A stretch of DNA of 64,000 bases from NCBI GenBank assembly GCA_021791755.1, contig JAJYWA010000003.1:6719-70718 (forward strand). The letters are read 5' to 3'. The position numbers and the translations under genes were made by a program. The notes below the pieces were generated by a model that saw only the letters and a list, made by a program, of their open reading frames with translations, was not told where the DNA came from and made no database searches. Every line of letters starts with the position of its first letter. Positions within the stretch are counted from its first letter, which is position 1. Below are positions 2,861-34,994 of the stretch, in pieces. This stretch comes from Actinomycetes bacterium. GTDB lineage: Bacteria > Actinomycetota > Acidimicrobiia > Acidimicrobiales > JAJZXF01.

Positions 2861-3865
2861 ATGAGCGACGAATCCGACCAATACGATAAACCAGTACACG
2901 TCACCGTCACGGGCGCGGCCGGCCAGATTGGCTACGCGCTGCTATTCAGGATTGCATCAGGCCAGTTGCTCGGTCCTCGCCAGCGAGTGGTCCTGCGGCT
3001 GCTGGAGATAGAGCCCGCACTGCGAGCATTGGATGGCGTCGTCATGGAGCTTGATGACTGCGCGTTCCCGCTGCTCGCGGATGTCGTGTCGACCTCGGAC
3101 CTGAAGACCGCCTTTGACGGCGCCTCGTGGGCGCTTCTCGTGGGCTCGGTTCCTCGCAAGGCCGGTATGGAGAGGAACGACCTGCTCAGTGTGAACGGCG
3201 GGATCTTCGGCCCCCAGGGAGAGGCCATTGCGGCTAACGCTGCGAGCGACGTGAGGGTTCTGGTGGTTGGGAACCCGTGCAACACTAATTGCCTCATTGC
3301 GCGGACACACGCGCCCGAGGTGCCCGATGATCGGTGGTTCTCGATGATGCGCTTGGACGAGAACAGGACTCGCTCTCTTCTCGCGCGCAAGGCGGGAGCC
3401 CAGGTGGACCAGGTTACGAACGTCGCGATCTGGGGCAATCACTCGTCTACGCAGTTCCCGGACTTTGCTCACGCGAAGATCTCAGGAACGCCTGTGCCGA
3501 GCGTGATCGAGGATCGTGCGTGGCTCGAAGGCGATCTGATCACGACCGTCCAGAAGCGCGGCGCGGCGATCATCGAGGCGAGAGGCGCTTCCTCTGCGGC
3601 CTCGGCTGCAAATGCGGTGATCGACTCGGTCCGCAGCATCATAGAGCCTGTGGCTCCTGGAGATTGGGCGTCCCTTGCAGTACCTAGCAGGGGTGAGTAC
3701 GGCGTGCCGGCCGGGCTGCAATTCGGCTTTCCGGTGCGCTCCGTTGGAAGCGCGTGGGAAGTCGTCGAGGGCTTGACGCATGACGACTTCGCCAAGGCTC
3801 GGATCAGCGCTACAGTAGCCGAGCTGGAAGAAGAGAGGGACGCGGTGCGCCACCTCTTGAGCTGA
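2861..3865 (+). CDS. mdh: malate dehydrogenase
   Basis: 334 aa. Has the [14 protein letters not shown] Rossmann motif, GNPCNTN and IWGNHSSTQ. Confidence 0.93.
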
Positions 3866-3955: not shown

Positions 3956-6151
3956 TCAGCGGGTCGCGGCGACGATTGCCATGAGCGCCATGAGCGTAAC
4001 GAGCATGTAGGCCATGTACCATGCCAGCTTGCCCGATTGCAGCCGTCTTGCGTGGCGAGCTGCCTGGAGCCACGTAGCGCGAAGCGGTTGGTACAGGTAG
4101 GTGGCAACCGGGTCGGAGACGGTGCGGGCGTACTCGGTGCGAGTTGGAGCGCCAGTGCCAGGCGTCGTGGTTGCGTCATTGCCAAGCCCAGTGTCATTGC
4201 CAAGCCCAGTGTCATTGCCAAGCCCAGTGCCATTGCCAAGCCCGGTGTCAGCGCCAAGCACAGCAGTGGTTGCGCTGGCGGTATCGGCAGGGATCCTGCG
4301 TACCTCTGTCCGGCTCTGCAGCAGGCTCGCCAAGACGTGCCGGAGTGGGTTGACGTAGGCGAAGGAGGTGTAGCTCGCGGTTCTCGCGGGCTCGCTCGAA
4401 GCCGACGTCCACGGCGGCACCCTCCGTACCCGGAGAAAAGATCCTCGTGAGACGAGAACGGTGAAGACGAACGTAGCCGTGAAGAACGAGCAGAGGATGA
4501 TCCACAGCCACGTCGGAGAGAGAATGGAGAAGTTCGCAAAGACCGGCTGGAGCACCATCGGAGAGCGCAGCGCACCGCGCACGAGGCTGGCGCTCACCAC
4601 AGTGCTGAGGCCGCGGGCGATAAAGCGCACGAGCAGTGGAGCCAGGACCGCGGCTGCGATGCATGACGTTGCCAGCGCGCCAACGCCGAGCCTGCCGACG
4701 ATGCCCTCCACCGTGGGGCTCTCCCCCGTGAGGCCCTGGGCTCCTGCGTAGCGATCTAGTCTCTCCTCCCGGGATCGGCCTCCAGGTGGTCCGCCGAGCA
4801 CGCTGAAGCCGATGAGCCTGGCGAAGCAGAGGGCGGCGAGTCCTGCCGTGAGGGCTGCCATCGCACCTGCTCCGGCAAGCGCGAGGCGCATCGCGAGGTC
4901 ATGCACGCGGAACTGCTGCATCAGGGCTTCGAGCACGAACCACTCGGAGACGAACCCGATGCTCGGCGGGAGGCCGGCTAGTGTCAGCGCCGATGCGGCA
5001 AAGGTAGTCGCACTCCAGGGAATACGCTTCACGAGGCCCGAGATTCCGTCGAGCCGTGTGGTGTGACCGACTGCTTCCGCGTTGCCGGCTGCTATGAAGA
5101 TCCCTGCCTTGGCGAGTGCGTGCGACACGGCTTGCAGTGTCGCTGCAAGAAGCCCGAGGGCTGCGAGCGGTTTGTTGCCGGTTGCTGCGCCGGTGAGCGC
5201 CACGCCATACGAGGTGAATATGATCCCGGCGTTCTCGATGCTCGAGTAGGCGATCGTGCGCAGCAAGTCCGACTGTACAGCGGCGAACGCGATGCCGCCG
5301 AGAGCCGTGGCGCCTCCCGTGAGGAGCACTCCGGCTGCCAGCCACAGTGGCGGGTGCCCGAGGACTCCGAGGGTCCTCCATAGGCCGTAGATGCCGACGT
5401 TCATGCCCACGGCCGCGAGCGCTGCTCGCGCTGGTCCGGGCGCAGACGGATAGGACGCCGGCATCCAGACCGAGAATGGAACGATGCCGATCTTCGCAGC
5501 GAAGCCGACGACGATGAGGATCCACGCCACATCGCGTGCTGGACCCGGCGCTACTGCATGCCATGATGCGATCGCAAAGCTGCCGGAACGTGACGAAAGG
5601 AGCAGGAAGCCGAGTAGGAGCGATGCTCCAGATACCTTGGCTGTCGACAGGGCAAGCCAACCTCGCTCGACGTGGTCTTCGGACGTCCTCTTGTGGACGA
5701 TGAGGACGTAGAACGACACGGAGAGCAGCTCCCACGCGAACAGGAAGGAGAAGGCGTCGCCTGCAAGCACCACGGCGGCCGCCGACGCGGCCAGCAGCGC
5801 GTACCCGGCGCCCAGCCCGCGACCGCTGGCGCCGGCGTTGGAACGTGACCAGGAGACGAAGCACATTGAGACGCAGAGAGCCACCGCCGAGGTGATCACC
5901 AGGAACATCGCAGAAAGGCCGTCGAGCACTAGGAAGGTATGCCCGATGCCGAACAGGCGCCCCAGTGAGAGCCTCTTTGCGCCATGCGCGGCCATGACCA
6001 TTGCGCCCGATGCCAGGAGGCAGCAGTTCGCCAGCGCGGTCAGTATGTACGGTGCGGATCGAGTCCAGCGTGAACGTGGGCCGAGGACCAGGTCTATGGC
6101 CATTGCGGCGCCGAGGCAGGAGAATGCCGCGACGAGCAGCTCTGCGGTCAC
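3956..6151 (-). CDS. NuoL/HyfB-like proton-conducting antiporter-type membrane subunit
   Basis: 731 aa and polytopic, with NuoL/HyfB-like blocks (WELLSVSFY, AKIGIVPFSVWMP, HALAKAGIF). GTG start overlaps the upstream stop as GTGA. The C-terminal region carries a (TGLGND)n insertion. Confidence 0.85.
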   Translation of the reverse strand: MTAELLVAAFSCLGAAMAIDLVLGPRSRWTRSAPYILTALANCCLLASGAMVMAAHGAKRLSLGRLFGIGHTFLVLDGLSAMFLVITSAVALCVSMCFVSWSRSNAGASGRGLGAGYALLAASAAAVVLAGDAFSFLFAWELLSVSFYVLIVHKRTSEDHVERGWLALSTAKVSGASLLLGFLLLSSRSGSFAIASWHAVAPGPARDVAWILIVVGFAAKIGIVPFSVWMPASYPSAPGPARAALAAVGMNVGIYGLWRTLGVLGHPPLWLAAGVLLTGGATALGGIAFAAVQSDLLRTIAYSSIENAGIIFTSYGVALTGAATGNKPLAALGLLAATLQAVSHALAKAGIFIAAGNAEAVGHTTRLDGISGLVKRIPWSATTFAASALTLAGLPPSIGFVSEWFVLEALMQQFRVHDLAMRLALAGAGAMAALTAGLAALCFARLIGFSVLGGPPGGRSREERLDRYAGAQGLTGESPTVEGIVGRLGVGALATSCIAAAVLAPLLVRFIARGLSTVVSASLVRGALRSPMVLQPVFANFSILSPTWLWIILCSFFTATFVFTVLVSRGSFLRVRRVPPWTSASSEPARTASYTSFAYVNPLRHVLASLLQSRTEVRRIPADTASATTAVLGADTGLGNGTGLGNDTGLGNDTGLGNDATTTPGTGAPTRTEYARTVSDPVATYLYQPLRATWLQAARHARRLQSGKLAWYMAYMLVTLMALMAIVAATR
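4175..4264. repeat. 18-bp in-frame tandem repeat x5 (the last two units diverged) in the HyfB-like gene
   Basis: GTCATTGCCAAGCCCAGT occurs at 4175, 4193 and 4211, with variants at 4229 and 4247. It encodes (TGLGND)n. Confidence 0.9.
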
Positions 6152-7275
6152 CCTAGAGCACCGCCGTTGTCGTTCCCACCGCCGTTGTCGTCCCCACCGC
6201 TGTTGTCGTTCTCGTCGTGGTGCGCGTGCTGCCGGCCGGCCTGGCGCCGAGGTCCTTCTTGTTCCGCTCTTGCGGGCTCATGAAGCTGGCCGGCCGAACG
6301 CTCGCCGAGGATGCCGACTGCGAGCAGTATCCCGTGGAGGAGGCTGAACGGGCTCGGAGGCGAGCCAGGCACCCAGACATCGACATCGAACAGGTCGGAC
6401 ACGCCTCCTCCAACACCGGAGCCTTCCCCACCAGCGCCAGCGCCAGCACGGCCACCAGCGCCAGCGCCTGACGACCTTCCGGCCGGTGAGCCGAGCATCC
6501 CGGCCAGCGTGCTTCGGGGACTTCCGGCCGAAGGATCGCCGGGGTTGGCGACGGCCGAGATCATGCCTCCGCTGATTGCGTCGACGCCAGCGGCCATGAC
6601 CACTCTTGGATGCGGCATGGCTTCGAGCGTGCGTGCGAGCGGTTCGCGCATCTGATCGACACACGCGCCGGTAATGAGGAGGAGGTCGGCATGCCGCGGG
6701 CTGGCGGTGAAGAAGATGCCCAAACGAGCGACGTCGTAGATGGGGTTCGTGAGGGCCGCTACCTCCCACTCGTCGCTGCCGTCGGAGCCGGAGTCGACGT
6801 GTCGTACGTGCACCGACCGGCGTAGCGCCTTGGTCCGCCTTCGCAGCTCAGAGGTGATCAGATGCAGGTTCTGGTCATCCTCGGCGACGTTCCCGACGAC
6901 GTTCCCGACGACGATCCGGCGGCGTTCGAGCGAGGCGATCTCGATGGTGGGGTCGAACCTGAAGAGATCGGGCCGGGCCGCCACGCACCTGCCGCATAGG
7001 ATGCAACGTCCCCTGTCCACGGCAACGACATCGTTGTCGACGTGAATCGCGCCGGTAGGGCATGCCGCGGCGGCGTCTCTTACGGGAGCCGCGGCGCTGG
7101 GACCTTGCCCGGGAAGCGGTTGGGGTGGCCAGCCAGGCCCTTCGGGCGCGAGGCTCTGAGCCCCGATGCTTCGAGGCGCGACGCTGGCTCGCCAGTTGCC
7201 ACCGTAGCCGTCAGGCTTGCGTGGGTAGCGGCTGGTGACGATGCCCTTGCTCAGTCCCTTCAGGATCCACGACAT
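6148..7275 (-). CDS. fusion of a HycF/NuoI-like ferredoxin domain with a HycG/NuoB-like small subunit; Fe-S ligands are mostly lost
   Basis: 375 aa from the internal ATG (MSWILKGLSKGIVTSRYP, the HycF/NuoI N-terminus). The NuoB-like core is LTNPIYDVARLGIFFTASPRHADLLLITG ... VDVWVPGSPPSP. Its ATG overlaps the stop of the upstream gene (TAATG). Confidence 0.8.
   Translation of the reverse strand: MSWILKGLSKGIVTSRYPRKPDGYGGNWRASVAPRSIGAQSLAPEGPGWPPQPLPGQGPSAAAPVRDAAAACPTGAIHVDNDVVAVDRGRCILCGRCVAARPDLFRFDPTIEIASLERRRIVVGNVVGNVAEDDQNLHLITSELRRRTKALRRSVHVRHVDSGSDGSDEWEVAALTNPIYDVARLGIFFTASPRHADLLLITGACVDQMREPLARTLEAMPHPRVVMAAGVDAISGGMISAVANPGDPSAGSPRSTLAGMLGSPAGRSSGAGAGGRAGAGAGGEGSGVGGGVSDLFDVDVWVPGSPPSPFSLLHGILLAVGILGERSAGQLHEPARAEQEGPRRQAGRQHAHHDENDNSGGDDNGGGNDNGGALG
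6159..6212. repeat. 18-bp in-frame tandem repeat x3 at the 3' end of the HycF-HycG-like gene
   Basis: CACCGCCGTTGTCGT(T/C)CC occurs at 6159, 6177 and 6195. It encodes the NDNGGG-type tail. Confidence 0.9.
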
Positions 7276-8810: not shown

Positions 8811-10303
8811 CGCCGTTTGGCTCCGCTGGCGCTGAGCTCATGCGCCGCTCGATCGATGAGATGCATGAGCTGGGCCGGCACGTGAACACCGAGCACAACC
8901 AAGGCAACGATCCCTGCTGCCATCGGCACGACCATCCAGCCGCTCAGCTCTCCGCGGCCTGGAGAGCCTTCGGGCGCTGGCGCAAGGAGGATGCGGGTGG
9001 TGTGCCAGGACAGCCCGAAGAACGCTATCGTCACCAGCACGACGAGCGCGGCGGCGGCGATCCCGCCTGATGCCGCCATCCCGCCCGAGACGATCAGGAG
9101 CTCGCTGCGGAAGATGCCGAATGGCGGCAATCCTGAGAGGGCCAGCACGGCCAGCAGGAGCATGGCGCCGCTCCAGGGCAGTAGGCGGGCCCCGCCGCGT
9201 ATCACGGTCATGTCCTTTGTGTGGAGCTTCTCTTTCAAGCTGCCCGCGCCGAAGAAGGCGGTGGACTTCGCGGCCGCGTGAGCGAGAACTTGGAGAAGGA
9301 CGCCCGTGATGGCCACCGGGGCTGCGAAGCTCATGCCAATTGCCAGGATCCCCATGTGCTCCACGCTCGAGTAGGCGAGGAGCCGCTTGAGATCACGCTG
9401 CAGCGCAAGGTACAAGGACGCGAGTAGGAGCGACGCAATGCCGAAGGCCAGCAGCACGTCTCTCGGGAACCCAGGGTCCAAGGATCGCGTCGCGACCTGA
9501 TCAAAACGGAGGATCGCATAGAAGCTGACTGCGAGGAGGGAGCCGGAGAGGAGGGCCGAGACGGGGGTGGGCGCTTCGGAGTGGGCATCGGGCAGCCAGG
9601 TGTGAACGGGCGCTAGTCCCATCTTCGTCCCGTACCCGAGAACTGCCAGGACGAACGCCAGCCGTACCATCTCTGGTGGGAGCTTGCGAGCGGCGTCTAC
9701 GAGGGGACCGAAGCCGATGCTGAACCCATGACCTATCCCGACTGCTCCGGCGGCGTAAATGAGCACGGTGGCCAAGAGCGCGAGGCCGAGGCCCATCGAA
9801 GCGATCAGTAGGTACTTCCAGGACGCCTCTGTTGCTCCGTCGGTGTCATCAAGAGCTACGAGCAGCGCGGAGACCACGGTTGTGATCTCGATCGCCACCC
9901 ATACCAGCGCCAGGCCGTTGACGATCGTGGCTATGTCCATTGCCCAGCAGAAAACGTTCAGGCCGAGGAGGAAACGCCGGTTGAACCGGTTGGACGAGCC
10001 TCCGTCGCGATGCGCCAGGTAGCCCACCGAGTACACCGATGTTGCGGCGTAGAGGAAGGTGGTGACGAGGCAGAACACCACCGATATGGAACCCGCCGAC
10101 AGCCATGAGCCCAGTCCCACGGAGCGAGGCCCGCTGGCGAGATGGGCCGTGAGCCAGACTGCCGAGGCGAAGCTGGCTCCCCCGGCAAGGACCGTGGCAG
10201 TTCGCGCTGTTCTCGCCCCGGCCAGCCAGGACAATGCGGTGGCGACAAGCGGCGCGATGGCTATTGTCACAAGGGCCGCTGTTCCCATGGTCACCATAGT
10301 CAA
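8807..10303 (-). CDS. NuoM/NuoN/HyfF-like proton-conducting antiporter-type membrane subunit
   Basis: 498 aa and polytopic. Contains GTKMGLAPVHTWLPDAHSEAPTPVSALLSG and SSVEHMG blocks. Overlaps its neighbours as TTGA and ATGA. Confidence 0.85.
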   Translation of the reverse strand: MTMVTMGTAALVTIAIAPLVATALSWLAGARTARTATVLAGGASFASAVWLTAHLASGPRSVGLGSWLSAGSISVVFCLVTTFLYAATSVYSVGYLAHRDGGSSNRFNRRFLLGLNVFCWAMDIATIVNGLALVWVAIEITTVVSALLVALDDTDGATEASWKYLLIASMGLGLALLATVLIYAAGAVGIGHGFSIGFGPLVDAARKLPPEMVRLAFVLAVLGYGTKMGLAPVHTWLPDAHSEAPTPVSALLSGSLLAVSFYAILRFDQVATRSLDPGFPRDVLLAFGIASLLLASLYLALQRDLKRLLAYSSVEHMGILAIGMSFAAPVAITGVLLQVLAHAAAKSTAFFGAGSLKEKLHTKDMTVIRGGARLLPWSGAMLLLAVLALSGLPPFGIFRSELLIVSGGMAASGGIAAAALVVLVTIAFFGLSWHTTRILLAPAPEGSPGRGELSGWMVVPMAAGIVALVVLGVHVPAQLMHLIDRAAHELSASGAKRR

Positions 10304-10965
10304 CCTCGCAACTTCGTGATCGGCTTGGTTGACAGCGTCCCTCCTCTCTGGTGATGCACTCGCATCAGGAGCCCGAAGGCCACGACGGCGACCAAGAGGT
10401 CGAACAGGAAGGCAATCTCCATGACCACAGGCAGCGCTGTCGCCACCACGAGGCTCGCCACTGAAACGGCGTTCTCCACCGAGAAGAACGCGACCCCCTG
10501 AGTGGCGACGTCCGACCGTAGGATCGCTAGAAGAACGGAGATGAGCAGGCTCGCGATCGCAATGCTCAGCGCCGGGCTCGGCAGGGTTCGCACGGGGAGC
10601 TTCAGCGCGCCGATCGCGAAGAACCCGAACGCAGAAGCGGCGGCAGCGATCAGCAGCATCGACGCGGTTCTCATGCCGGCGCTCGAGGACAGGTCAGTGT
10701 CGAGGCTTGGCGCAAGCCGCCCCATGATCGCCGGGACGAGAACTACCTTCGTGAGGAAGGACACCCCTGCAAGAAGGTATAGGCCGTCGAGGCCGTGGGT
10801 GGCGGCGACCACGACGACGAGCGCCGTCACCGCGATGGATTGGAACCGGTAGAGGCGGACTTGCGAGCGCACGAATGGCGCTCGGAGCATGGCCATTACG
10901 CATAGGAGCACCGTGAGGCTGATCACGTCAGCCGCGCTCTGGAACGCGTTCGGCGCCGCAGTCAT
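10300..10965 (-). CDS. HyfE-like (NuoK-related) small membrane subunit
   Basis: 221 aa from the internal ATG (MTAAPNAF). About 7 TM segments, and the size and hydropathy resemble hydrogenase-4 component E. The longer ORF to 11118 overlaps the upstream gene. Confidence 0.7.
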   Translation of the reverse strand: MTAAPNAFQSAADVISLTVLLCVMAMLRAPFVRSQVRLYRFQSIAVTALVVVVAATHGLDGLYLLAGVSFLTKVVLVPAIMGRLAPSLDTDLSSSAGMRTASMLLIAAAASAFGFFAIGALKLPVRTLPSPALSIAIASLLISVLLAILRSDVATQGVAFFSVENAVSVASLVVATALPVVMEIAFLFDLLVAVVAFGLLMRVHHQRGGTLSTKPITKLRG

Positions 10966-12298: not shown

Positions 12299-12493
12299 TG
12301 GCTTGGTCAGCAGGTCGAGCACGCTGGTGGGCGGTTTAGCTCGCCCAGCGTCCGGCTGCTCGTTGGGTACTATAGTGAAGTGAGGTCAGCATTCTCGCCG
12401 GCCTGCGGGGTCGTCATAGCCTATTGGCATGTTGGCTGGCAGATTTGCCGGCCATGATCAGGTAGCCGGACGGCAATTCACTTGGCAGGGAGA

Positions 12494-14134
12494 ATGACGA
12501 CTGCTCTTCGAGTGCTAGGGGGCAGGTATCAGCTGGAGGATCGCCTTGCCCGGGGAGGGATGGGGGAGGTGTGGCGTGGACACGACCTGCTCCATGATCG
12601 CACGGTTGCTCTGAAGCTGGTCGGGCTTGGCAGCCCAGCGGCAGCGGACCGTTTCGTCGCCGAGGCATCGACTCTTGCCAGCCTGACGCATCCAGCCCTT
12701 GTGCGTTTCTTGGATGCAGGCATGGCAGATGGTGAAGCCTATCTGGTCATGGACCTGATCGATGGCCCAAACCTCGCATCCGAGCTTGCCGCAGGCGCTC
12801 CGCTGGATCCCTGTCGCACCGCGAAGATCGGGGCGTCTCTTGCAAGCGCACTCGCTTATGTTCATGAGCACCGTATTGTCCACCGTGATGTCAAGCCGGC
12901 GAACGTGTTGATTGGATCGGATGGCATAGCTCGCCTGGCTGATTTTGGTGTCGCAAGGTTGATGGATGAAGTGGGTCCAACTACGACGGGAATGACCATT
13001 GGGACTGCGGCGTACATGGCGCCTGAGCAGCTCGAGCATCATTCAGTGGGACCTGCAGCCGACGTGTACTCGCTGGGGCTCGTGCTCCTGGAGTGCTTGA
13101 GTGGCCGTAGGGAGTACCAGGGCACGCTCACAGAGGTCGCTGCGCGTCGGCTCTGCCAGGATCCTGTCGTGCCGCAGGAGCTCCCGGTGGGATGGCGCCT
13201 TCTTCTTGGTGCGATGTTGGTGCGCGATCCGCTGAGGCGTCCCACGCCAGCAGAAGTTGCAAGTGTGTTGGCGCCGTTCTCGCAGACGGCCCTAGCTACG
13301 GATCCGTTGCTAGCCGCGTCTACGGTCTTGCTTCCATCTCTGAGCTCATCGTTTACCGCGTCTCCGACCTTGCCCGGTCCTGCCGTGAGCTCGCGGCCGC
13401 CGGTGCAGGTGCCACGTGCTCTTGTGGATCCTGGGGGGACCGCGAGAGGCGCGCGACGCGCTGGTAAGGACCACCATTCCCGCCGTCTGATGTCGTTGAT
13501 GGCGCTGGCCGCGGTTCTTGCGGGCGGGCTGGTGGCCCTTGGCGTATCGCTGGGAACGGTTGGGAACAGCAGAATGCCTCGCAGGGTCACTGGCCGCGTG
13601 TCAACGAAGGCACGGACAGCTCCCAGTGGAAGCACAGTTCAGCCGACTACGGCCTCCACCGCGCCGCCTTCTGCGTCCTCGCCGGTGGCGGCGCTATCGC
13701 CGCATGATGCGGCGCCGGCCGGCCCTGGCGGCAGTGCAGGCAGGTTCCTGATCAACCTCCAGAACGGCCTAGTGGATGGCTCTGTGAGTGCAAGAGAAGC
13801 ATCGTCGCTCATCTCGGCTATTGCCTGCCTGCTCGAAGCGTACGACAGCGGACAGGCATCAAGAGCCGCCAAGTGCCTGAACCAGCTCGATGCCTCGATC
13901 CAGCAAGGTGAGGAACGAGGGTCGCTGTCGGTGGCCCTCGGGAACACGCTGAGCTCCGACCTGCAACCTCTTGTTGCCGATGTCGGGTCCATGGCAAGCC
14001 AACCCGGAGACGTAAGTCTGCAGGGCGCCGGTCCCTCGCACGGCGCCGGGCCACCGAGCCAGAGTGGCCCTGGCACGCCTGTGGGCATCAATCCTCCAGG
14101 AGCACCGCCCGGCAGGGAAAGAAAGGGCGGCTGA
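12494..14134 (+). CDS. Hanks-type Ser/Thr protein kinase with one TM helix and a C-terminal extracytoplasmic domain
   Basis: GGMGEVW...VALK, HRDVKPANVLI, DFG and APE motifs. A TM segment (LMSLMALAAVLAGGLVALGV) is followed by a Pro/Ser-rich region. An alternative TTG start lies at 12482. Confidence 0.9.
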   Translation: MTTALRVLGGRYQLEDRLARGGMGEVWRGHDLLHDRTVALKLVGLGSPAAADRFVAEASTLASLTHPALVRFLDAGMADGEAYLVMDLIDGPNLASELAAGAPLDPCRTAKIGASLASALAYVHEHRIVHRDVKPANVLIGSDGIARLADFGVARLMDEVGPTTTGMTIGTAAYMAPEQLEHHSVGPAADVYSLGLVLLECLSGRREYQGTLTEVAARRLCQDPVVPQELPVGWRLLLGAMLVRDPLRRPTPAEVASVLAPFSQTALATDPLLAASTVLLPSLSSSFTASPTLPGPAVSSRPPVQVPRALVDPGGTARGARRAGKDHHSRRLMSLMALAAVLAGGLVALGVSLGTVGNSRMPRRVTGRVSTKARTAPSGSTVQPTTASTAPPSASSPVAALSPHDAAPAGPGGSAGRFLINLQNGLVDGSVSAREASSLISAIACLLEAYDSGQASRAAKCLNQLDASIQQGEERGSLSVALGNTLSSDLQPLVADVGSMASQPGDVSLQGAGPSHGAGPPSQSGPGTPVGINPPGAPPGRERKGG

Positions 14135-34173: not shown

Positions 34174-34994
34174 CGCTGTACTCCTATCGTTCTACCGTAC
34201 TCTTAACAGTACGGAAAACCTAACTGGATGTCAACATGGGTCGTCCCTCCAAGCAATGATCCGAGTTGACGTTTCCTCACGCGACAGTTCGGGCCACGGG
34301 CGCCGACGCCTGACAACCCGCCCACTGACGCGGCGCAGACGAGGAACGCATCCAGTGGGGACCTGAAGGTAACCCGCCCTGAGCGTCATCCCTAGTCCAT
34401 CCCTACAACTGTTCGTTGAATCGATCTGCGGCGAGTCCGGCGAAAACAGCCCACAGCCGCGAAAACCCAGCAAATATGCTGGAGTCCAGGGCTCCGGTGT
34501 GCCACGAACGAAAGGAGAGGCGTGAAGTTATGACGTAGGTAACGCTGCTGTTTTCGATGCTGTGCGAGAGATGAAGGATGGCCCTTCGGAGTCGCCCTGC
34601 GGGGAGAGGCTCCAAACCGCCGTGTGCTGCGTTGGCTGAAGACCGTCGTGGTAAGCGATCACGGAAAAGGCACGCTTGACGTGTCAGGTGGGACTGTCGA
34701 GCGATGGCAGCGCTTGTTCATCGACGAGATTGACACTGTTACCGCTGACCATCGCCCCACCTGGCAGACCCCGGACAAGTACAACCCAGCCCGCCTGTCC
34801 AATAGCGCAGTCGACATCGCCCACACCATCTGAACTGAACACGCTCCCCTGACGACAGTGCCTAGCCTGCTGCGGGAAATTGAGGGCGAAGCCTTTGCCC
34901 GACCTGCGGAACCTAGGTTCGTAGGTAGCCCGGTAGATGTTCGGTGCGATACCGCCCCTCGGGATGCGGTCGAGTTCCTGAGCGATCGTTGGGT

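Follow-up and report, generated by a model that had tools for sequence, protein, structure and literature searches.

A conserved one-cluster small subunit in an actinobacterial Ehr complex that is probably no longer an electron wire

The DNA analysed here, 64,000 nucleotides of contig JAJYWA010000003.1 (the window) from an uncultured actinobacterium, carries on its minus strand a locus that, judged by its sequence, is a six-gene Ehr complex (Ech/energy-converting hydrogenase-related). The assignment follows from the definition of Ehr, namely a gene cluster resembling those of group 4 hydrogenases combined with a large subunit that has no ligands for NiFe. The small subunit of this complex is a fusion of a HycF-like ferredoxin domain with a HycG/NuoB-like domain, and it retains the ligand set of a single predicted [4Fe-4S] cluster. 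As hundreds of actinobacterial species share this one-cluster state, an Ehr complex with such a small subunit is probably no longer an electron wire. We lean towards a model in which the complex translocates ions independently of any electron relay through the small subunit, the last cluster serving as a structural element or as a redox sensor.

Six genes, all read in one direction, make up the locus; their ends overlap or lie close to one another, their open reading frames (ORFs) are all intact, and the small-subunit gene comes fifth (Table 1). Its ATG (7275-7273) runs into the TAA stop of the large-subunit gene upstream, with one base in common (TAATG), its stop lies at 6150-6148, and the reading frame exactly fills positions 6148-7275. 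Both halves of the fusion are recognised by Pfam, as Oxidored_q6 (E 3.2e-17, residues 168-317) and as single-cluster Fer4 models (approximately residues 84-110), while the top matches among solved structures in the PDB are HycG (7z0s_G, E 1.3e-22) and MbhJ (6cfw_J, E 4.7e-21). A profile of 20 N-terminal domains from the small-subunit family (A2) finds HycF first (7z0s_F, E 6.5e-8) and NuoI/TYKY chains next; its alignment with HycF begins at residue 3 and covers the T..YP (TxxYP) segment that is specific to HycF and NuoI. The AlphaFold2 (AF2) model has an overall predicted local distance difference test (pLDDT) score of 63.7, with values of 80-90 for both cores and under 50 for an insert and the C-terminal tail, and its fold resembles HycG and NuoB, with 7z0s_G again as the top Foldseek match.

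Five cysteines are present in the small subunit, namely C72, C91, C94, C97 and C205. The first motif of HycF, CIGCAACVNACP, aligns over ...ELAELCP, where the last cysteine (C72-P73) is the sole one retained, and its second motif, CIFCGRCEEVCP, aligns over CILCGRCVAARP, the stretch that holds C91, C94 and C97 and in which R101 stands at the place of the fourth cysteine. In ferredoxins with two [4Fe-4S] clusters, one cluster is bound by the first three cysteines of motif 2 together with the fourth cysteine of motif 1. As these are the very cysteines that survive, this rule of cross-ligation predicts one complete ligand set. An earlier note, made from the letters of this DNA, had described the same state, with motif 1 reduced to its final cysteine, motif 2 keeping its first three with the fourth changed to arginine, and the four survivors amounting to exactly one cluster's ligands; the HycF alignment bears out the first two points, and the third holds, for a predicted cluster, by the standard cross-ligation rule. 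In five homologues motif 2 is still full (CxxCxxCxxxCP), a relic which confirms that the family descended from a two-cluster ferredoxin.

In the NuoB/HycG-like half the proximal, N2-type cluster has lost all four of its ligands. HMMER alignments with HycG and MbhJ place D165 and D168 (VDSGSDGSDEWE) under the CxxC ligands of HycG (VDCGGCNGCEIE) and MbhJ (VNSGSCNGCDIE), D232 (GVDAISGG) under the cysteine of YGACGNSGG and S305 (PGSPP) under the cysteine of PGCPP. Alignments with NuoB/PSST span the same region, and no cysteine stands at 165-168, 232 or 305. The large subunit, which matches HycE at 1.9e-32, has lost its ligands as well: compared with HycE, MbhL and NuoD, the RxCGxC motif has become RIEGVA (RIEGVASVAH) and the C-terminal DPCxxC region IEASFGLSIAG (IEASFGLSIAGAAL), so that the four NiFe-cysteine positions are occupied by E208, A211, S501 and L504. 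The ligands of the quinone headgroup in NuoD, which we take to be Tyr87 and His38 in T. thermophilus numbering, are missing as well, since alignment with P. denitrificans NuoD puts glycine in place of the tyrosine (DRLDYVA versus ERIEGVA) and phenylalanine in place of the histidine (GPQHPAAHGV versus GPVRSGVFEA). This ligand-less state extends over the family (E208 in 74/74 and S501 in 73/73 homologues), in which 114 positions of the large subunit are near-invariant (one residue shared by 95% or more of 74 homologues). The substitutions thus fall on the canonical ligand positions of the HycF/NuoI and HycG/NuoB families, and two further claims of the earlier note stand: every NuoB-type cluster cysteine has been replaced, and nothing downstream is left to receive electrons, given that the large subunit has neither of its NiFe CxxC pairs and the quinone Tyr/His have turned into Gly/Phe. 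With no second ferredoxin cluster, no proximal cluster and no NiFe or quinone site, the canonical wire, which runs from the ferredoxin clusters through the proximal cluster to the active site, is interrupted before and after the surviving cluster. The window operon has no gene for an electron-input module of the HycB, FdhF or NuoEFG type, and in a crude survey of the flanks of related loci none recurred among the conserved neighbours.

These losses bear directly on how the protein has been named. Source annotations would make it part of a true group 4 [NiFe]-hydrogenase or formate hydrogenlyase (FHL), under the name 'Ni,Fe-hydrogenase III small subunit/ferredoxin', a name that JGI applies to many homologues and that agrees with the best solved-structure matches, which are HycG, HycF, HycE and HycC of E. 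coli FHL. As the large subunit has no NiFe cysteines, and the small subunit has none for the proximal cluster and only half of the HycF set, this identity is refuted at the level of sequence and we give it next to no chance. Labels such as hydrogenase III small subunit, ferredoxin or NuoB are a hazard for annotation, as surveys based on genomes could count these proteins as H2 metabolism or complex I.

The one-cluster state is a property of a large family. A database search returned 2833 proteins at E<=1e-5, the best 120 of which, 46-56% identical and mostly from Acidimicrobiales and Actinomycetota metagenome-assembled genomes (MAGs), were used to assess conservation. Each of C72, C91, C94 and C97 is present in 120/120, while the position of C205 of the window copy is Gly in 117/120, and the residues that replace the N2-type ligands are nearly as constant, with Asp at 165 in 120/120, Glu (95) or Asp (22) at 168, Asp at 232 in 117/120 and Ser at 305 in 119/120. 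A scan of GTDB with two family motifs, at one genome per species, found a relative in at least 510 species genomes, mostly of Acidimicrobiia. The 80 loci kept for comparison include Acidimicrobiaceae, Pseudonocardiaceae, Nocardioidaceae, Acidothermus, Galbitalea and the cultured Streptantibioticus parmotrematis Ptm05 (locus L059), and in these the only columns with at least five cysteines are 72, 91, 94 and 97, each 80/80; the acidic set reads D165 in 80/80, E59/D18 at 168, D73/E7 at 232 and S76/A4 at 305. The four invariant cysteines and the conserved D/E/D/S set argue for selection and not decay. Among genomes, an 'Actinomycetes bacterium' MAG comes closest, with 80% amino acid identity in the NuoH-like subunit and 56% in the small subunit.

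If the operon had once encoded a formate hydrogenlyase or hydrogenase 4 and were now in non-functional decay, this would account for the failure of all six proteins to reach the curated NCBIfam cut-offs, for the lack of transcripts in metatranscriptome runs and for the low-complexity inserts and tandem repeats of the window copy. The loop between GG237 and VDV298 counts 58 residues against a median of 15 in homologues, and the C-terminal tail 53 against a median of 9; neither the insert nor the tail occurs in homologues. All tandem repeats are nevertheless in frame, their units being multiples of 3 bp, and independent metagenome contigs match them without differences or indels. Four metagenome runs, from two studies of mine drainage and sediment, contain the window sequence at approximately 5-10x depth; in two of the four the whole small-subunit gene lies on long independent contigs without indels (X1 with 0 differences, X3 with 4), and the other two, X5 and X7, span parts of it with 0 differences. 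The insert itself is covered without differences or indels, wholly in X1 and X7 and in part in X5. Together with six intact ORFs with overlapping start and stop codons, a gene order that recurs in the 80 loci and substitutes that are conserved and not random across 510 species, this makes decay very improbable. A pseudogene or an assembly artefact was likewise rejected, on the grounds of family conservation and the independent contigs.

A profile search over 1.8 billion cluster representatives places the window family within a series of Fe-S states. The search gave 335 proteins at E<=1e-30, of which the best 150 were examined and their genomic contexts sampled; among these 150, 68 have all four NuoB-type cysteines and approximately 45 are of the D-[ED]-D-S type, including forms without a ferredoxin. 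Three clusters are predicted where both ferredoxin motifs and the NuoB cysteines are present (P0183 in locus L087, P0170 in L086), two where the window-type single ferredoxin set is combined with the NuoB cysteines (P0138 in L081), one in the window small-subunit family, with its single set and no NuoB cysteines, and none where the ferredoxin core has been deleted and the NuoB domain carries D-E/V-D-S (P0142 in L083, P0154 in L084). The zero-cluster forms retain the N-terminal W..RGL..G..T.RYP segment of HycF type, and the L084 protein is found on 11 contigs. All four states share the same operon type, and every large subunit inspected is devoid of NiFe ligands. Since a single operon type is kept across states with three to zero clusters, what it conserves is most likely ion translocation for which no electrons need to pass through the small subunit. 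Covariation of the acidic pocket with E208 of the large subunit was also considered, and was rejected, as the cluster-free D-E-D-S relative in L083 has Ala at this position, whereas L084 has Glu.

The richer members of this series also supply evidence for an alternative, in which the window complex is still redox-driven, its single cluster taking electrons from a soluble ferredoxin-like donor and reducing a nearby acceptor, for example at the interface of the ferredoxin domain and the large subunit, thereby powering ion translocation. Two-cluster relatives hold the surviving ferredoxin set together with the NuoB cluster, which suggests that this set talks to the NuoB cluster, and some Ehr complexes may carry electrons to an acceptor other than NiFe; among the related operons with two- or three-cluster chains beside large subunits without NiFe, some probably do carry electrons. 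The absolute invariance of the four ligand cysteines is what a working redox centre would show, and around the former active site of the large subunit the charged residues R156, E161, E168, E208 and E499 are invariant. It is established, however, that in known structures of complex I and group 4 hydrogenases the clusters of NuoI and HycF reach the active site only by way of the NuoB cluster, which is absent here, and the large subunit offers no NiFe, Tyr or His ligands. Sister operons exist with no cluster at all, and the window operon lacks a gene for a partner oxidoreductase, and none recurs near the 80 loci, as far as a survey of their flanks by crude ORF calling based on GC content at third codon positions (GC3) and clustering can tell. 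We therefore consider a redox-driven complex unlikely.

The membrane arm, on the other hand, looks functional from its residues, though not identical to that of complex I, because the canonical charged residues of both antiporter-like subunits, other than that of TM8, and many acidic residues of the NuoH-like subunit are invariant. The glutamate of transmembrane helix (TM) 5, the lysine of TM7, the His/Lys of TM11 and the glutamate of TM12 are kept in both, as E139, K227, H342, K346 and E401 of the HyfF-like subunit (67 homologues) and as E141, K220, H344, K348 and E403 of the HyfB-like subunit (72 homologues). The NuoH-like subunit has many Glu, Asp and Arg that are invariant in the family. 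The position of the TM8 lysine is occupied by Ala at residue 258 of the HyfF-like subunit (53/67) and by Asn at residue 251 of the HyfB-like subunit (72/72). As the operon and its membrane charges are kept while the clusters fall from three to zero and the N2 cysteines give way to carboxylates, the conserved function would not be electron transfer to a catalytic site.

In the model that we favour, the core function of the complex would be to translocate ions (H+ or Na+) by means of its conserved membrane arm. The last cluster would not act as a relay but would have a structural role in the peripheral arm or sense redox state or O2 there, and the place of N2 would be taken by the acidic pocket, which would form a salt-bridge network or bind a cation. 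Several points weigh against this model. The invariance of the cysteines over hundreds of species shows that the cluster matters, but it fits electron entry equally as well as a sensor or structural role, occupancy of C72, C91, C94 and C97 by a cluster is a prediction, and the AF2 model of the fusion is only moderate at its overall score. We take the surviving set to be the equivalent of N6b, which in the T. thermophilus structure lies beside N2, an assignment for which we found no source and which is supported indirectly, by the two-cluster relatives that combine exactly this set with the NuoB cluster. The loss of the TM8 lysine from both antiporter-like subunits makes the lateral proton path unlike that of complex I. 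Finally, the operon was absent from the metatranscriptome contigs of three runs of the same study, an absence that is uninformative given a DNA depth of approximately 10x.

The pocket itself admits of another explanation, compatible with redox-independent ion translocation, by which the D, E/D, D, S set would be a new metal or cation site (Ca2+, Mg2+, Mn2+, Fe2+ or Na+) that has replaced N2 and acts as a coupling site or a catalytic centre. The places of its three carboxylates and one hydroxyl come together at a single point in all NuoB/HycG structures, and the set is conserved in the 80 loci and recurs as D-[ED]-D-S in approximately 45 of the 150 cluster representatives. This argument is drawn from sequence, pairing of the carboxylates with conserved arginines, for example R156 of the large subunit, is an equal possibility, and in some relatives one position of the acidic set is Val, Thr or Ala, so that we regard a new metal site as quite unlikely. 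Possible, though rather unlikely, is a combined form of our model, in which this clade of Ehr complexes would be an ion-translocating machine of complex I type whose peripheral arm has given up electron-transfer chemistry, the N2 site has become a carboxylate pocket that binds a cation or mimics charge, and the last [4Fe-4S] cluster is a redox/O2 sensor that gates the membrane arm.

Ehr complexes have been reported from Geobacter, Sulfobacillus, Nitrospira, Margulisbacteria and M. tuberculosis (Rv0082-87), with 'function unknown' (PMC7894505, PMC4378227, PMC10284858, PMC12342949, PMC6349859, PMC6728331), a description still in use as of 2025 (PMC12342949). According to PMC6349859 and PMC4758237, Marreiros et al. 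2013 generalised the concept, and the make-up of Ehr in Geobacter and other phyla (PMC7894505, PMC4378227, PMC6349859) is matched by the window locus. The likeness lies in NuoL-, NuoH- and HyfE-like subunits with a second antiporter-like subunit, a large and a small subunit, and in the loss of both NiFe CxxC motifs. In contrast to these reported complexes, the small subunit of the actinobacterial clade is fused to a HycF-like ferredoxin, carries one predicted cluster and has its N2-type cysteines changed to D, E/D, D and S. The name Ehr is said to go back to Coppi 2005, where it was coined for GSU0739-45 of Geobacter sulfurreducens. No earlier description of this Fe-S ligand pattern or of the 3-2-1-0 series was found in the accessible literature; Marreiros 2013 and Coppi 2005 lie outside it and may hold one.

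Beyond Ehr, E. coli FHL (Hyc, 7Z0S) and hydrogenase 4 (Hyf) provide the best sequence matches for every subunit and have the same module architecture, whereas the window complex is without the NiFe site, the proximal cluster and the HycB/FdhF input, has one ferredoxin cluster instead of two, and has HycF fused to HycG. With the Q-module of complex I it shares homologous folds, a NuoC-NuoD fusion as in E. coli and the antiporter TM5 Glu, TM7 Lys and TM12 Glu, but it lacks the N2 ligands, the quinone Tyr/His, the N-module and the TM8 Lys, and has 4 cysteines where NuoI has 8. MrpD/MbhH-like subunits of Mrp antiporters and of Pyrococcus MBH/MBS (6CFW, 6U8Y) are also among the best matches. Mrp, which has no peripheral arm, shows that such membrane machinery works without a redox module; MBH/MBS keep three clusters, and the locus has no separate MrpB, E, F or G genes.

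The order NuoH-like, HyfE-like, HyfF-like, large, small, HyfB-like subunit is found in all 80 loci as far as their contigs reach, the HyfE-like gene being detected at the same place in 62/80. Against the NCBIfam models the HyfE-like subunit scores 79 bits (cut-off 136), the HyfF-like 332 bits (under the cut-off) and the HyfB-like 379 bits (cut-off 667), and as all six proteins fall under the curated cut-offs they are best described as Hyf/Hyc/Nuo-like but not as equivalogs. Scans for promoters and terminators gave no signal above shuffled sequences. The putative isocitrate/malate dehydrogenase genes and the kinase-like gene on the flanks of the operon do not recur in the conserved neighbour clusters of related loci, where the sporadic neighbours, identified by reading of the sequences, are universal stress protein (Usp; approximately 10 loci), DegV-like, CrcB-like and MutS-like genes. 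The Usp gene directly follows the HyfB-like gene in approximately 11 related loci, including L083 (10324-10758), and lies at approximately 12900-13400 in L005, L023, L027, L031, L034, L042 and L053; the window has no Usp gene, mdh lying there on the opposite strand. This adjacency is a weak hint, by analogy, of a link to stress or hypoxia, recalling the DosR-regulated Rv0081-88 of M. tuberculosis. Elsewhere in the window an Rfam match to RF01999 (group II intron D1-D4) at 34573-34689 on the plus strand (97.5 bits, E 9.5e-19) suggests a mobile group II intron, and ARAGORN found no tRNA genes in the 64 kb.

Table 1. Features of the Ehr locus, its flanks and related loci (window coordinates unless a locus is named)
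Feature	Coordinates	Strand	Basis or remark
Isocitrate dehydrogenase and malate dehydrogenase genes, one operon flank	1567-2763, 2861-3865	+	By eye
HyfB/HycC/NuoL-like antiporter-like subunit, 731 aa, last operon gene	3956-6151	-	PDB HycC 6.1e-31
Tandem repeat, 18 bp x4.9, HyfB-like gene	4175-4263		TGLGND x5
Ehr small subunit, HycF/HyfH/NuoI-like ferredoxin domain fused to HycG/HyfI/NuoB-like domain, 375 aa	6148-7275	-	Pfam, PDB, profile, Foldseek
C-terminal tail, residues 323-375, Asn/Asp/Gly repeat absent from homologues	6151-6309	-	
Tandem repeat, 18 bp x2.9, small subunit	6159-6211		NDNGG tail
Former proximal (N2-type) cluster site; D165, D168, D232, S305 for four Cys	6361-6783	-	HycG/MbhJ/NuoB alignment
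S305	6363-6361	-	
Gly/Ala/Ser/Pro low-complexity insert, approximately residues 241-290, loop between GG237 and VDV298	6406-6555	-	
Tandem repeat, 6 bp x6.3, small subunit	6431-6468		GAGAGG insert
D232	6582-6580	-	
D168	6774-6772	-	
D165	6783-6781	-	
Tandem repeat, 12 bp x2.8, small subunit	6885-6917		VVGNVVGNV linker
Ferredoxin core, sole conserved Cys, one predicted [4Fe-4S] ligand set	6961-7074	-	HycF alignment and family conservation
C97, motif 2 Cys3	6987-6985	-	
C94, motif 2 Cys2	6996-6994	-	
C91, motif 2 Cys1	7005-7003	-	
C72, motif 1 CP cysteine	7062-7060	-	AAAACPTGAI
Large subunit, NuoC-NuoD/HycE-like, 511 aa	7275-8810	-	Pfam Complex1_49kDa and Complex1_30kDa
HyfF/NuoM-N/MbhH-like antiporter-like subunit, 498 aa	8807-10303	-	Pfam Proton_antipo_M 5.6e-50
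HyfE-like small membrane subunit, approximately 221 aa from ATG at 10965	10300-10965	-	NCBIfam 'hydrogenase 4 membrane subunit' 3.7e-22
NuoH/HyfC/HycD-like membrane subunit, 335 aa	10982-11989	-	Pfam NADHdh 9.1e-31
Ser/Thr protein kinase-like gene, other operon flank	12482-14134	+	By eye
Zero-cluster small subunits of related loci	L083 7722-8294; L084 8001-8666		
Predicted three- or two-cluster fused small subunits beside NiFe-less large subunits	L087 5509-7801; L086 4376-6581; L081 785-3102		

The conserved one-cluster state and the 3-2-1-0 series together provide a lead on the function of Ehr complexes, for which the hypotheses narrow to the transport of ions, a sensing or gating role, or a new metal site, and they single out C72, C91, C94, C97, D165, D168, D232, S305 and E208 as residues of interest for that function. 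If the combined model of a carboxylate pocket and a gating cluster is true, the series would show how a redox pump turned, step by step, into a regulated transporter that is independent of redox chemistry.

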